DNA of 64,000 nucleotides, taken from contig CACFVE010000002.1 in the NCBI GenBank assembly GCA_902569735.1, positions 3,730 through 67,729 of the forward strand, written 5' to 3'. Each line of letters starts with the position of its first letter. The stretch's first letter is position 1. Source of the stretch: an uncultured Pelagibacteraceae bacterium. Lineage in GTDB: Bacteria > Pseudomonadota > Alphaproteobacteria > Pelagibacterales > Pelagibacteraceae. Both the position numbers and the translations under genes were made by a program. Below, piece after piece: positions 29,763-37,282 of the stretch. The notes beneath the pieces were generated by a model that searched no databases, had not been told where the DNA came from, and saw only the letters and a list, made by a program, of their open reading frames with translations.

Positions 29763-32195
29763 TTAAGCTCTAATTAATTTATTTTCTGAATCATATGGAG
29801 ACTCTTCTACTATAGAAGCTTCATGCATTTTACCTAGAATATCTATCTTTAATTTTTGACCAACTTTAGCTAATTCTGGTTTTACCATTCCCAAAGCAAT
29901 TGATTTATTTACTCTAAAGCCAAAGTCTCCACTAGTAGCTCTTCCAACTACTGAGCCGTTGTCATATATAGGATTATTTCCCAAGACATCTGCATCAGTT
30001 ACTCCATGTATTTCCATTGTTACTAATTTATTTGAAAAGCCTTTGGCTCTCCATTTGTCTAATGCCGCACGTCCTATAAAATCTCCTTTATTTGGGTGAA
30101 CAAATCTATCTAGTCCAGACTCGTAAGGTGAGTACTCAATTGATAATTCAGTTCCTACCAATTTATAAGATTTTTCTACTCTCAAACTATTCATAGCTCT
30201 GATCCCATATGGTTTTAAACCAAATTCTTTACCGGCTTCCATGAGTTGATCAAAAATATGATTTTGATATTCAATTGGATGATGTAATTCCCAGCCTAAT
30301 TCACCAACAAAGTTTACTCTCATTGCGCTGCATGGGGCTAAACCTATGTTGATGTTTTGTGCGCTTAACCATTTAAATCTTTCATTAGAAAAGTCTGATC
30401 TAGAAACTTTTTGCATAAGTTGTCTAGCTTTAGGGCCAGATACCACTAAAACTCCCATGCTATTTGTTAAATTTTCGTATTGAACTGTCCCATCTTTTGG
30501 CATCCATTTATGTATCCAGTCGTGATCAAGTCTTTGAAATGCTCCCGCAGAAACCAGATAAAAACTATCTTCAGCCTCTCTCATAATAGTAAATTCTGAA
30601 TGAACACCGCCTTTAGTATTTAAGGCGTGGCAAAGATTAATTCTTCCAATTTTTTTAGGAAGTTTATTAGCAACAAGCTTATCTAAAAATTCTTCAGCCC
30701 CTGAGCCTTTAATCCTACATTTTCCAAATGCAGTCATATCTAGAAGACCGACATTTTCTTTTACATTTTTACATTCACTCTCAACATTTTTAAACCATTT
30801 TGATCTTCTAAATGACCAGTCATCTTCCTGTTTCTCTCCTTCTTTTGCGAAGAAGTTTGCTCTTTCCCAGCCAAATTTTGCTCCAAAAACAGCTCCTAAT
30901 TTTTTTAAACGATCATAACAAGGCGCTTGTCTTAAAGGTCGACCTGCCTCCCTTTCTTCATCGGGATAGTGAACAGTAAACACATTTGCGTATGCTTCTT
31001 CATTTTTAGCTTTTAAATAAGACTTTGTTGCATAGGACCCATATCTTCTTGGTTCTACACCAAGCATATCTATTGTTGGCTCTCCATCAATAATCCATTC
31101 AGCTAATTGCCAACCCGCACCTCCTGCCGCAGTAATTCCAAAACTATGACCTTCATTAATCCAAAAATTTTTTAATCCCCATGCTGGGCCAACTATTGGA
31201 TTTCCATCAGGTGAGTAAGCGATAGCACCGTTATACACTTTTTTTACTCCCACCTCTCCAAATGCAGGAACTCTTTTTATAGCTCCTTCAATGTGTGGGG
31301 CTAATCGATCTAAATCTTCTTGAAATAATTCATATTCACTATCTTTTGAAGGACCATCAACATAACAACATGGTGCGCCTTTTTCATAAGGACCTAGCAA
31401 TAATCCTCCAGCTTCTTCTCTCATGTACCAAGAGTTGTCACTATCTCTAAGGACTCCCATTTCAGGCTTACCTTCTTTTCTTCTTTTTTGAATTTCTGGA
31501 TGAGGTTCAGTAACAATATATTGATGTTCAACTGGAATAACAGGAATTTCTAAACCAACCATATGTCCTGTTTGTCTAGCAAAATTTCCACTACAAGAGA
31601 CTACATGTTCACACTCTATATCTCCTTTATCAGTTTTAACTACCCAACCATCTTTTGTTTGTTTAATTGCTGTAACAGTTGTGTTTCTATAAATTTCAGC
31701 ACCATAGTTTCTTGCTCCAGTAGCTAGTGCTTGAGTTAAATCTGCTGGTTGAATATAGCCATCTTCAGGATGTTGTATTGCTCCGACTAATCCCTCAATA
31801 TTAATTAAAGGCCAAATTTCTTTTACTTGTTCAGGTTTTAAAAATTTTACATCCACTCCAATAGTTTTTGCTACCCCAGCGTATTGATGATACTCATCCA
31901 TTCTGTCTTGAGTTTGAGCTAAACGAATATTTGATACCACGCTAAATCCTACGTTTTTACCGGTTTCTTTTTCTAGAGATTTGTAAAGTTGAACTGCATA
32001 TCTATGAAGTTGTCCAACTGAGTAACTCATATTAAATAAAGGCAATAGGCCTGCAGCATGCCAAGTAGAACCAGAAGTAAGTTCTTTTCTTTCAATCAAT
32101 ACAACGTCTGACCAACCTTTTTTAGCTAAATGATATAGGACACTTACTCCAACTACTCCTCCACCAATTACAACTACTTTCGATTTAGATTTCAT
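29763..32195 (-). CDS. Dimethylglycine dehydrogenase-like GcvT-family flavoprotein
   Basis: GGGVVG, ELTSGSTWHAAG and a C-terminal folate-binding domain; co-transcribed with etfBA. The exact substrate is not determinable from sequence. Confidence 0.88.
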   Translation of the reverse strand: MKSKSKVVVIGGGVVGVSVLYHLAKKGWSDVVLIERKELTSGSTWHAAGLLPLFNMSYSVGQLHRYAVQLYKSLEKETGKNVGFSVVSNIRLAQTQDRMDEYHQYAGVAKTIGVDVKFLKPEQVKEIWPLINIEGLVGAIQHPEDGYIQPADLTQALATGARNYGAEIYRNTTVTAIKQTKDGWVVKTDKGDIECEHVVSCSGNFARQTGHMVGLEIPVIPVEHQYIVTEPHPEIQKRRKEGKPEMGVLRDSDNSWYMREEAGGLLLGPYEKGAPCCYVDGPSKDSEYELFQEDLDRLAPHIEGAIKRVPAFGEVGVKKVYNGAIAYSPDGNPIVGPAWGLKNFWINEGHSFGITAAGGAGWQLAEWIIDGEPTIDMLGVEPRRYGSYATKSYLKAKNEEAYANVFTVHYPDEEREAGRPLRQAPCYDRLKKLGAVFGAKFGWERANFFAKEGEKQEDDWSFRRSKWFKNVESECKNVKENVGLLDMTAFGKCRIKGSGAEEFLDKLVANKLPKKIGRINLCHALNTKGGVHSEFTIMREAEDSFYLVSAGAFQRLDHDWIHKWMPKDGTVQYENLTNSMGVLVVSGPKARQLMQKVSRSDFSNERFKWLSAQNINIGLAPCSAMRVNFVGELGWELHHPIEYQNHIFDQLMEAGKEFGLKPYGIRAMNSLRVEKSYKLVGTELSIEYSPYESGLDRFVHPNKGDFIGRAALDKWRAKGFSNKLVTMEIHGVTDADVLGNNPIYDNGSVVGRATSGDFGFRVNKSIALGMVKPELAKVGQKLKIDILGKMHEASIVEESPYDSENKLIRA

Positions 32196-32272: not shown

Positions 32273-32665
32273 TTATTCGAATGTTTTCAATTCTAGAACA
32301 TTTCCATTTGGATCTTCAATAAAAAATGTATTTTGCTGAAATTTAGTACCTTTAAATCTCGTATAAGGTTTATCAATATATTTTATATTATTGTTTTTTA
32401 AATTCGACTTAATGTGATTAAAAACTTCTTTTTTTAGGTGTACTCCAAAATGAGGAACTGGAACATTTCCCATATCCACGTCGTGATTTTCTCTTGGAAG
32501 TTTCATTTTAGTTTGATGTAAGGTTAATTCATTTCCCCAAAAATCGATATCTACCCATTTTCCCTCTTCTCTGTTTCCAGTCTTACATTCAAGAATTTCA
32601 GTATAAAACTTTTCTGTTTTTTCTAAATTTCCTGCTGGAAGGGCTAAATGAAATGAATTGCTCAT
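32273..32665 (-). CDS. VOC/glyoxalase family protein
   Basis: FHLA, WVDIDFWG, VPVPHFG and DPNGNVLE motifs. Confidence 0.88.
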   Translation of the reverse strand: MSNSFHLALPAGNLEKTEKFYTEILECKTGNREEGKWVDIDFWGNELTLHQTKMKLPRENHDVDMGNVPVPHFGVHLKKEVFNHIKSNLKNNNIKYIDKPYTRFKGTKFQQNTFFIEDPNGNVLELKTFE

Positions 32666-32721
32666 AATTCAAATCATTTAAATTAATTTTAAAATGTTTC
32701 AAGTGGTCAATTTAGTCAAGG

Positions 32722-32736
32722 TGCGAATAATTATCA
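32722..32736. promoter_or_regulatory. Candidate Fur-family operator
   Basis: TGCGAATAATTATCA differs at two positions from the 7-1-7 Fur box TGATAATnATTATCA. The AT-rich background lowers specificity. Confidence 0.4.
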
Positions 32737-32803
32737 TTAATGCAAGTCATTTAAGCGACAAATAAATCATTGTAAATTATAGTTTATTAATTATATTCGA
32801 ATT

Positions 32804-32923
32804 ATGGCATGTAATAATCCTAAATGTTTATGCACTAACTGCGTAAGTGATAAATGTCCTTGCGATGGTTTGAAAGAGTGCCTTTGTAAGTCTGAAGACT
32901 CGACTTGTTGCTGCAACAAGTAA
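32804..32923 (+). CDS. 39-aa Cys-rich peptide (metallothionein-like or Cys leader peptide), missed by the ORF track
   Basis: [39 protein letters not shown]: 11 Cys, three CxC motifs and CCC, no aromatic residues. TTGTAA-16-TATATT ends 6 nt before the ATG. Confidence 0.8.
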
Positions 32924-32949
32924 TCAGTCATTTTAAATCAAATTTAATT

Positions 32950-33528
32950 ATGAACGAATATTTAGACTCTATCATTAAAAGAGATCCGGCTGCAAAATCC
33001 AAGATCAGCCTATTATTAACTTATCCAGGAGTTAAAGCTGTTTTTTTTCATAAGGTAGCAAATTTTTTTCACTTAGCGGGATTTCATTTGTTGGCTAGAG
33101 TTATATCTCAAATAACAAGATTTTTTACAGGTATTGAAATTCATCCCGGAGCAAAGATTGGAAAGAATCTTTTTATTGATCACGGCATGGGTGTAGTAAT
33201 AGGAGAAACATCTGAGATAGGAAACAACGTAACTATATATCATGCTGTTACACTTGGAGGGATTTCACCAAGTATTGATAGCGAAAGACAAAGACATGAA
33301 AAAAGACACCCAACAATTGGAAATGATGTAGTGATAGGTTCAGGTGCACAAATTATAGGACCTATCAAAGTAGGCAATGGTTCCCGTATTGCTGCTAACG
33401 CAGTTGTTGTAAAAGATGTTCCTGATAATGCAACTATGGTAGGAGTTCCAGCTAAAATTATTAAGTCTGGTAACGAAGGACAGTTTAGGCCTTATGGCGT
33501 AGATGAAAAAGTAAAAGATGAGCAATAA
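32950..33528 (+). CDS. cysE: Serine O-acetyltransferase
   Basis: [27 protein letters not shown] and KRHPT motifs. ATG 32950 is the start, not TTG 32905. Confidence 0.95.
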
Positions 33529-33895
33529 AGATTGGGATCCAAATTTAACTCCTGAACAAAATTATGTTTTAAAACAAGAAGGAACTGAGTCTCCAGGATC
33601 AAGTGCTTTAAATAATGAAAAGAGAAAAGGTTCTTACCACTGTGTTGGTTGTGGAACAAAACTTTTTGATTCTAGCTCAAAATATGAAAGTGGATCTGGT
33701 TGGCCATCTTTTTTTAAATCTGTGCCAGATGTATTTGAGGAAAAAACCGATATGCATATTGGCTATCCAAGAACTGAATATCATTGTAAAAAATGTGGAG
33801 GACACCACGGACATATTTTCGAAGATGGGCCAAAACCTACTGGAAAACGTTATTGCAACAATGGCGTGTGCCTTGTTTTTAAACCTAAAAGTTGA
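33518..33895 (+). CDS. msrB: Methionine-R-sulfoxide reductase (cytoplasmic)
   Basis: GTE, Cxx[17 protein letters not shown] and RYCNNG motifs. Confidence 0.93.
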
Positions 33896-35681: not shown

Positions 35682-36586
35682 TGAACGATATAACTGTTCT
35701 TGGGATATTTGTTGCCGATATCAGTTTTTCAGGAAATAAAATTCCAAGATCTGGGGAAACAATTTTGGGTGATAGCTATAATATTGGGCCTGGAGGAAAA
35801 GGATGCAATCAAGCTATAGCAATTTCAAGGTTGGGAGGAAAAGTAAATTTTATTTCTAAGTTAGGCAATGATGATTATGGCAGGCTTGCAATAGATAAAC
35901 TTCAAAAAGACAATATAGATACTTCAAATATAATTATTTCTAACAATCACAAGACTGGGGTTGCCGGTATTCATGTAGATAGAAATACTGGAAAAAATGC
36001 CATTACTGTTGTTAGAGGAGCTCCTTCAAGTTTAACTACTAAGGAAATTGATATAAATTTAATTAAGCAATCAAAAATATTTTTAACACAATTGGAAATC
36101 CCAATAGAGGTTACTTTGCACTGCTTGAAAGCTGCAAAAGAATTTGGCCTAATAAATATATTAAATCCTGCACCAGCATGTGAACTAAGCAGTGATTTTT
36201 TTAAGTTAGTTGATTACTTTACCCCTAATGAAACTGAAGCGGAGTTTTATACTGGAGTCAAAATCAACGATGAAAGTGATGCAAGAGTTAGCGCAAAAAA
36301 ACTAATAGATATGGGAATTAAAAAAGTCATAATTACTTTAGGTGAAAAAGGATTATTTTATTCAGACGGTAAGGAAGAAATTTACTTGAAAGCAACTGCA
36401 GATAAAGCAGTAGATACTACGGGAGCAGGAGACGCATTTAACGGAGGATTTTCGTTTGCATTACTAAAAGGAAAAAAAATAAAAGAGTGTTTAGAAATAG
36501 CTAACAAAGTAGCTGGTCTTTCTACTACAAAATTAGGCGCAGGTGACTCAATGCCAACTTTAAAAGATATTAATTTGAAGGTTTAA
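35681..36586 (+). CDS. rbsK: Ribokinase (PfkB family)
   Basis: PGGKGCNQA, LNPAPA, PNETEA and DTTGAGDAF motifs. Confidence 0.88.
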   Translation: MNDITVLGIFVADISFSGNKIPRSGETILGDSYNIGPGGKGCNQAIAISRLGGKVNFISKLGNDDYGRLAIDKLQKDNIDTSNIIISNNHKTGVAGIHVDRNTGKNAITVVRGAPSSLTTKEIDINLIKQSKIFLTQLEIPIEVTLHCLKAAKEFGLINILNPAPACELSSDFFKLVDYFTPNETEAEFYTGVKINDESDARVSAKKLIDMGIKKVIITLGEKGLFYSDGKEEIYLKATADKAVDTTGAGDAFNGGFSFALLKGKKIKECLEIANKVAGLSTTKLGAGDSMPTLKDINLKV

Positions 36587-37025
36587 AAATTAAGCAAAGA
36601 CCATTGTTGCAAAATCTTTTTCCAGTTGCACTTGGCCCATCATTAAAAACATGGCCATGGTGGACTCCGCACTTAGCACAATGATACTCAGTTCTAACCA
36701 TTCCAAATTTACGATCAACTTTTGTTTTAAAAGCTCCTGGTAAGGCTTCCGAAAAAGACGGCCATCCTGTTCCGCTATCAAACTTAGATGTGGAAGCAAA
36801 CAATTTTGCCCCACAATTTGCACAATGATAAAAACCATCTCTTTTCTCTTTATTTAATTCACTTGAAAACGGTCTTTCCGTTCCCTCATTAAACATAATA
36901 TTCTTTTGTTCGTCAGTTAAATCTTTATTAAAAAGTTTTTTTGCTGCTGCTGAGATAAAGCTGAAGGGTAATAATAAAGAGGAAATCAGTGACAAACCTA
37001 AAACTTTTAAAAAGCTTCTTCTCAT
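36570..37025 (-). CDS. msrB: MsrB with a predicted Tat signal (periplasmic)
   Basis: MRRSFLK plus a hydrophobic stretch; GTERPF, SGTGWPSF and RFCNNG motifs. Confidence 0.9.
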   Translation of the reverse strand: MRRSFLKVLGLSLISSLLLPFSFISAAAKKLFNKDLTDEQKNIMFNEGTERPFSSELNKEKRDGFYHCANCGAKLFASTSKFDSGTGWPSFSEALPGAFKTKVDRKFGMVRTEYHCAKCGVHHGHVFNDGPSATGKRFCNNGLCLIFKPSN

Positions 37026-37282
37026 TATGATTCTAAAAGTTTATCTAATTCACCGGTTCTATTAGCTTCTTGGAGTCTATCGTTTCCTCCAATATAATGA
37101 TCACCTATAAATATTTGAGGAATAGTTCTTGCGCCATTTGTTCTTTGCAACATTTCTTTTGCCTTAGCAGGATCTTTCCATATATCTAGTTCCTGAATTT
37201 CTACATTTTTGGTTTTCAATAAAGCCTTGGCTGCTTCACAAAATGAGCAAGGATCTCCAGTGTACATAGTGACTTTTTTCAT
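37025..37282 (-). CDS. grxC: Glutaredoxin 3-like protein
   Basis: CSFC, RTIPQIFIG and IGG motifs. Confidence 0.9.
   Translation of the reverse strand: MKKVTMYTGDPCSFCEAAKALLKTKNVEIQELDIWKDPAKAKEMLQRTNGARTIPQIFIGDHYIGGNDRLQEANRTGELDKLLES

Follow-up and report, generated by a model that had tools for sequence, protein, structure and literature searches.

Metallothioneins have few aromatic or hydrophobic residues and little regular secondary structure; one of them, MymT, uses His and is under the control of a copper repressor. They are defined by low molecular weight and a high content of Cys in CxC, CxxC and CC motifs (PMC13578184). The characterised bacterial members are described as few and mostly of the cyanobacterial or Pseudomonas His/Cys zinc-finger types (PMC13578184, PMC7387436). 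Those of the SmtA/BmtA/PflQ2-MT family (PF02069) are given as about 60 aa with about 16% Cys (PMC13578184) and as forming Cys9His clusters (PMC7387436), and MymT is listed among the bacterial metallothioneins that do not belong to the SmtA family (PMC10612145, PMC7387436). In several animal groups, domains of 11 or 12 Cys with CxC units and a terminal CC are reported to bind four divalent ions (PMC8476144).

The window analysed here, a 64,000-nt stretch of the uncultured Pelagibacteraceae genome G000, carries a 39-aa, 11-Cys microprotein gene on the + strand (32804..32923, ATG to TAA). Direct reading of the window agreed exactly with the peptide given in the preliminary description, and its composition was as claimed there: 11 Cys in 39 residues (28%), three CxC and one CxxC, no His, Phe, Tyr or Trp, and a terminal CCC at residues 35-37, followed by NK. 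The Cys spacing is C-x4-C-x-C-x2-C-x4-C-x-C-x5-C-x-C-x6-CCC. With these values the peptide agrees with the metallothionein superfamily in size and Cys motifs; it also agrees in having few aromatics and little regular secondary structure, the latter judged from a metal-free AF2 model of moderate confidence that contained neither helix nor strand (best pLDDT 78, pTM 0.42). Among the non-Cys residues of the homologues (n = 712), aromatics made up 0.8% compared with 9.7% in the long-ORF proteome, and the hydrophobic share was 9% in the peptide family compared with 37%. Both classes were strongly avoided although the AT-rich genome would favour them.

Among the 1943 ATG ORFs of 25-80 aa in G000, the peptide ORF had the highest Cys share (28%, followed by 21% for the runner-up; 1.0% in the long-ORF proteome). 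The frame, start and stop were kept in relatives, and pN was lower than pS, so that both comparisons named in the preliminary description, ORF conservation and synonymous versus non-synonymous change, indicated a gene under purifying selection. A chance or shadow ORF was rejected on the extreme Cys share in G000 together with the open frame, start and stop conserved in relatives. We are practically certain that the 39-aa ORF is a real gene.

Twenty-seven genome loci were analysed, L030 being left out as a duplicate of L025 from the same genome. All 11 Cys positions were kept in 24 of them, and the remaining three encoded a shorter variant (36 aa; 12 Cys, five CxC units). The C-terminal run of consecutive Cys (CCC or CCCC) was present in all 27; His was absent from 25, and a single unconserved His occurred in two. 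In these loci the peptide ranged from 36 to 43 aa with 11-12 Cys, and Asn, Gly and Pro were also conserved. TGT and TGC alternated at every Cys column, CCC included. In the 24 loci, which were grouped by full Cys retention and were for that reason partly bound to show no change at Cys codons, pN was below pS in all 276 pairs (0.24 vs 0.70; uncorrected, pairs non-independent), and values of 0.35 and 0.62 (uncorrected) were obtained at non-Cys codons. Between G000 and genome G014, pN was 0.12 and pS 0.36. The exact spacing of the 11 Cys suggests, at the level of sequence, more a folded cluster than a loose thiol pool. Spacing variants that gained or lost entire CxC units were also seen (L038-L040, L056, L144 and L049); they comprise a 36-aa form with 12 Cys, a 34-aa form with 10 Cys and a 39-aa form in which a twelfth Cys is present.

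Intact homologues were found in 19 of 401 Pelagibacteraceae genomes, in 4 of 19 genera. A profile built from 22 natural homologues matched 18 of the 401, G000 included; 15 matches were strong and three weak, the weak ones being the 36-aa, 12-Cys variant at the same site. The 19th carrier came from a search for pdo, a gene that often accompanies the peptide (see below); the pdo loci inspected were the best 30 of about 159, and divergent peptide forms may be missed. Nine further loci were called SAR11 because they are Pelagibacteraceae records placed beside family members in the cysE tree. A match in G250 (E 0.004) was rejected as spurious, since it contained an internal stop and lay opposite another gene. 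In metagenomes, 63 of 65 loci held a closed ORF with 10-12 Cys and the other two were cut by contig ends, in a search that favours intact matches. The range outside Pelagibacteraceae was judged by HMM searches, which returned no homologue in 300 genomes drawn from the class or in 60 genomes of the sister family. The peptide gene is accessory, being present in about 5% of the genomes searched, and is not a lineage trait.

Database searches likewise led back to the same family. All 19 matches at E<=0.001 among 1.84 billion representatives belonged to it by sequence, and 20 peptide clusters were present in a 5.8-billion set, a collection from which the window's own sequence was absent. None of 71 family members read bore a functional name. 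When proteins of any length were searched among the 1.84 billion representatives, two longer proteins were returned. Three long records, P0030 (123 aa), P0033 (78 aa) and P0021 (56 aa), matched only over the first 32-33 positions, had no CCC and ran on into unrelated sequence, which in P0030 we take to be acetyltransferase-like; they may be frameshifts, chimeras or fusions. No relatives were found in phage or plasmid sequences by four viral-contig scans or by two phage and one plasmid tblastn searches, which used short exact words or a low-complexity filter and no positive control. The family was not found described in a literature search that covered few subscription journals and was directed at SAR11 metallothionein or persulfide dioxygenase and at novel bacterial metallothioneins.

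No family in Pfam, NCBIfam or PHROGs matched the peptide, and 0 of 39 members matched a metallothionein model in Pfam or NCBIfam at E<=10. The SmtA/BmtA/PflQ2-MT proteins resemble the peptide in being small and Cys-rich with CxC and CxxC motifs, and the Pseudomonas members also stand without an adjacent metal regulator, as reported in PMC7387436. However, the PF02069 profile matched 0 of 39 members at E<=10 and 0 of 5 carrier genomes (Synechococcus elongatus control positive), the peptide is shorter and richer in Cys than those proteins (39 aa, 28%) and offers no His ligand, and their zinc-finger secondary structure is absent from its AF2 model. Foldseek and VIA-align, queried with this short, metal-free model (pTM 0.42), gave no match to a GATA-type zinc-finger fold, and no metallothionein in the PDB was matched by sequence or fold. 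No SmtB-type repressor was present near the peptide among 50 assigned neighbour clusters. The peptide is not an SmtA/BmtA member. It can be set beside MymT by description only, and differs in that no copper regulator occurs among its assigned neighbours.

A likeness was also seen to the insect MTn (PF02067), ascidian 12C and vertebrate alpha domains, which are described as having about 40 residues, 11-12 Cys, CxC units, a CC run and Cys-only ligands (PMC8476144). The peptide spacing nevertheless matched none of the animal motifs tabulated there, and no PF02067 HMM match was obtained; the resemblance is likely convergent. For the homologue P0070, a language-model neighbour search placed the PF02067 metallothionein cluster at rank 4 with a score of 0.85, which is below 0.9 and counts as a lead only.

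In the window the peptide gene is followed by cysE, encoding a 192-aa serine O-acetyltransferase (32950..33528, +; TIGR01172, 216 bits, cut-off 210.65), which starts 26 bp past the peptide stop, and by msrB, encoding methionine-(R)-sulfoxide reductase (33518..33895, +; TIGR00357, 137 bits, cut-off 113), which overlaps the end of cysE by 11 nt. The statement that the cysE start in the ORF list had been falsely extended proved correct: the 207-aa ORF that begins with TTG (32905-33528) shares 19 nt with the end of the peptide gene, and CysE homologues begin at the ATG equivalent to 32950. Upstream lie a divergent glyoxalase/VOC-family gene (32273..32665, -; PF00903) and a gene for an 810-aa FAD-dependent GcvT-domain oxidoreductase (29763..32195, -), a chromosomal site marker that identifies the same site in 6 of 6 same-genus peptide loci and in the pdo-type locus L044. 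The glyoxalase gene adjoins the peptide in only 2 of 93 peptide loci. The glyoxalase-cysE gap (32666..32949) is 284 bp in the window and in G014, and 55-67 bp, without the peptide, in 15 of 17 same-genus loci that have both genes. A pdo 3' remnant as the source of the extra DNA was not supported, since only 2 of 7 alignments scored above shuffles and these were explained by a shared promoter region.

Across 93 peptide loci, some of which may be redundant, the neighbours within 3 kb were predominantly cysE (76), pdo (71), cysK (60) and a 1-Cys peroxiredoxin gene, prx (51), with sqr (14), msrB (10) and glutaredoxin (6) less frequent. The commonest order was prx divergent from (sqr)-pdo-peptide-cysE-cysK. 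The names pdo and sqr were assigned from structure matches to ETHE1 (E 1e-50) and to mitochondrial SQR (E 6e-100), respectively; NCBIfam gave no over-cut-off name for either gene. Many pdo matches lay in open frames of 334-352 aa (e.g., L044:3980-5948 and L059), a hint from frame length of a fused extra domain. The 70 neighbour clusters within 3 kb comprised 50 with a Pfam family and 20 without assignment, and no metal transporter or metalloregulator was found among the 50. In the metagenome loci, cysE followed the peptide in 53 of 65, a convergent gene in 8 and a contig edge in 4. Outside the cluster the peptide adjoins msrB, glutaredoxin or groEL. In L115 (1341-3120) the peptide gene lies 7 nt after groEL with hisG converging on it, and in L147 (1-239) a likely groEL end precedes it; by gene order, this placement is likely a move into the chaperonin operon. 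The usual home of the peptide family is the sulfide/thiol cluster of prx, sqr, pdo, cysE and cysK. The cysE-msrB setting of the preliminary description was accurate for the window, where the peptide stands directly ahead of both genes, but msrB is a minority context, and the window represents a reduced peptide-cysE-msrB module.

The cluster also occurs without the peptide. A pdo gene was present in 158 of the 401 family genomes (a tally that includes the unpublished G267); the gene, which is ETHE1-like, was found in genus g11 in 126 of 136 genomes, and was rare in the window's genus, g1 (4 of 137). SQR and PDO have been called rare in SAR11 (PMC5702731), which contrasts with the figure for g11. 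Among the best 30 of about 159 pdo loci, a ranking biased towards carriers, 16 joined pdo to cysE without the peptide, 9 had the peptide and 5 had no cysE there; because of these 16, the peptide is dispensable. In the window's genus cysK sits elsewhere (27 of 38 genomes), and cysK was not found in G000. No close pdo, sqr or prx match was obtained in G000, which is 74% complete, and cysE was not found in four peptide-bearing genomes, three of them 70-80% complete (G351 served as positive control). In a cysE tree of 48 rows, drawn with midpoint rooting and including 6 of the 16 peptide-less pdo-cysE loci, G000, G014 and G351 formed a fully supported carrier clade among peptide-less rows of the same genus, and at least 3-4 gains or losses of the peptide were required. 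On the simplest reading of the tree, the peptide may have been gained by recombination in the G000/G014/G351 branch.

A promoter was predicted at 32770..32797 (+), with -35 TTGTAA, a 16-nt spacer and -10 TATATT, ending 6 nt before the ATG. The same placement (~6 nt before the ATG) was found in 26 of the 27 genome loci, on which the test was devised, and in 53 of 63 metagenome loci, to which it was then applied; these loci are kin, so the counts express conservation and not independent draws. In G000, taken as background, this placement was seen at 9 of 692 long ORFs and at 0.35% of the 24,828 remaining ATGs. Because the -35/-10 pair ends so close to the ATG, the peptide mRNA is likely leaderless. 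A short GC-containing element (32755..32761, +; about 45-49 nt before the ATG) was common to many peptide loci and was not seen in the gaps of peptide-less pdo-cysE loci. As for the proposed co-transcription with cysE-msrB, no terminator-like site lies between the genes, and RNA contigs that bridge to cysE lend it weak support. Contigs from 3 of 8 RNA runs (X2, X8 and X10, from three studies) spanned most of the gene into cysE at a depth of 2.6-4.6, began at 32799-32820 and carried no strand information; X2 and X4 also contained intergenic pieces from upstream, which makes carry-over of DNA possible. The peptide gene was without cover in runs X1, X3, X4, X5 and X6, except for its first 14 nt in X4.

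The preliminary description had proposed a Cys-only bacterial metallothionein. What holds of this claim is the conserved, His-free, Cys-rich, metallothionein-like composition and the lack of any matching library family; from composition alone, a metal-binding peptide cannot be told apart from a persulfide or redox buffer. The Cys constraint, the purifying selection, the avoidance of aromatics and the absence of secondary structure in the model speak for a metallothionein, and the sulfur and redox character of the neighbours, with no metal gene among the assigned clusters, speaks against a plain metal role. On balance, the peptide is probably a metallothionein-like protein of a single domain, free of His, that acts as a buffer for soft metals and thiol stress. 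Its 11 Cys at fixed spacing would likely fold around a metal-thiolate cluster with Cys thiolates alone as ligands, and by analogy with the animal 11/12-Cys domains the load might be about four Zn/Cd or several Cu(I). Such a protein could buffer soft metals and thiol-reactive stress in the cytoplasm. From its own promoter, a leaderless message would run into cysE, and in most relatives also cysK, which would tie the supply of cysteine to a product that takes up 11 Cys in every chain; the role of the peptide would lie in a sulfide/thiol stress cluster and not in a metal-efflux operon. The ratio of Lys to Asn was set aside as a predictor of Cu versus Cd, since both residues are inflated by AT bias and the rule is regarded as uncertain outside gastropods (PMC8476144).

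Exporters of metal were also searched for. Heavy-metal P1B-ATPases were absent from 5 of 5 carriers and 5 of 5 non-carriers (G000, G014, G261, G320, G318, G064, G068, G082, G083 and G092; controls positive), and cation-diffusion exporters from all 5 genomes searched (controls positive). Since the P1B-ATPase is absent from carriers and non-carriers alike, its absence does not explain the distribution of the peptide. A Pseudomonas metallothionein is reported as dispensable for metal resistance (PMC7387436), and metal binding by the peptide would therefore not prove a detoxification role. A more elaborate form of the metallothionein reading, which we consider rather doubtful, is a SAR11 Cys-only single-domain protein convergent on the animal 11/12-Cys domains, wired into a sulfide-oxidation and cysteine-synthesis cluster, holding metal-persulfide clusters and possibly acting, through its leaderless frame with the terminal CCC, as a cysteine sensor for cysE-cysK too.

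A rather unlikely alternative is that the peptide serves mainly as a persulfide (sulfane sulfur) or redox buffer of the sulfide-handling cluster, with metal binding secondary; its thiols would take sulfane sulfur from SQR, or oxidants, and be recycled by thiol reductases. The neighbours in the 93 loci (pdo, cysK, 1-Cys peroxiredoxin, sqr, msrB and glutaredoxin) fit this role, displaced copies still lie beside msrB, glutaredoxin or groEL, and mouse MT-3 is reported to hold sulfane sulfur in Zn-persulfide clusters (PMC12618007). Against this role, pdo was present in 126 of 136 g11 genomes and the peptide in about 11, pdo and cysE were adjacent without the peptide in 16 of the best 30 pdo loci, and G000 (74% complete) had no close pdo, sqr or prx match. 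The rigid 11-Cys spacing would also suggest a folded cluster.

A Cys-sensing leader peptide, a rival that the preliminary description did not consider, would act differently, by ribosomes stalling at Cys codons, above all at CCC, when Cys-tRNA is short, so that cysE-cysK is switched on. Mycobacterial leaderless ORFs with >=3 consecutive Cys codons were all cysteine-responsive, according to bioRxiv 10.1101/834739, some of them keeping conserved non-Cys residues, and base-pairing is shown there for one locus only, Ms5788A. The peptide shares with this type the predicted leaderless start, the three consecutive Cys codons near the stop and the position ahead of cysteine genes: cysE follows in 53 of 65 metagenome loci, and in genome loci starts 31-50 nt past CCC. 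It differs from the Ms5788A type in having no stable leader duplex, eight earlier Cys at exact spacing, and persistence without a downstream gene. The structure from CCC to the next start had a mean z of -0.11 (0 of 27 below -2) and the whole leader a mean z of -0.58 (2 of 27 below -2). TGT and TGC were swapped freely, CCC included; 8 of 65 metagenome loci had a convergent gene and no co-oriented one downstream, msrB stood 3 nt behind the stop in three loci, and no cysE was found in four carrier genomes (three 70-80% complete). Peptide-less relatives, moreover, have an AT-rich -10-like element directly before cysE. Given the convergent-gene loci, the genomes without detectable cysE, the lack of RNA structure and the free codon exchange in CCC, attenuation cannot be the peptide's only role, and as the main explanation it is improbable; a secondary part in sensing is conceivable.

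A store of cysteine or reduced sulfur, built up under ample cysteine and broken down under sulfur shortage, was the other suggestion of the preliminary description, and it fares poorly. The peptide is 28% Cys and cysE-linked in 76 of 93 loci, and SAR11 are described as having no assimilatory sulfate reduction and relying on reduced sulfur (PMC5069961). Exact spacing of 11 Cys is not needed for storage, nor are conserved Asn, Gly and Pro; 28 other residues are spent per 11 Cys, about 95% of the family genomes searched are without the peptide, and sulfur stress reportedly did not upregulate cysE and cysK in a cultured strain that may not be a carrier (PMC5069961). We consider storage very improbable. 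A precursor of a secreted or modified disulfide or thioether peptide (RiPP or defensin-like), to which the small size, the Cys content and the only PDB sequence matches (disulfide-rich LDL-receptor modules, weak and not significant, best E 0.054 and 0.14) might point, is barely conceivable: there is no hydrophobic signal segment, the Cys number is odd with a CCC run, and the 50 assigned neighbour clusters include neither a modifying enzyme nor a protease or dedicated exporter.

If the metallothionein reading is correct, the known metallothionein architectures would be joined by a new one, built on 11 Cys without His and borne by a very abundant marine lineage, in genomes without detected heavy-metal P1B-ATPases (0 of 10) or cation-diffusion exporters (0 of 5). 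That a streamlined, reduced-sulfur-dependent cell spends 11 cysteines per chain suggests real selection. The convergent sulfide-cluster metallothionein, if true, would be the first bacterial one tied to sulfide metabolism rather than metal efflux. Importance is limited by the accessory status of the gene (about 5% of genomes searched) and by a function read from sequence. The peptide is short enough for synthesis, which makes the choice between metal and persulfide directly testable.

Further elements were observed around the locus. On the - strand 3 kb downstream (36570-37282), another msrB, extended at its N-terminus by a signal-like segment, and a glutaredoxin gene reinforce the thiol-repair character of the region. 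In peptide-less loci (L003-L020 and L059-L074), the AT-rich -10-like element ends 5-10 nt before the cysE ATG, and cysE may itself be leaderless there, to judge from this position. A 7-1-7 imperfect palindrome (32722-32736), which we take to resemble Fur-family boxes, is located 57 nt before the glyoxalase start and was present in 2 of 6 same-genus peptide loci (G000 and G014 only). G000 contained three other near-matches. One falls within a Fur-family gene (G000:C10:19303) and precedes, by 156 nt, a 718-aa ORF that is presumably catalase-peroxidase-like.
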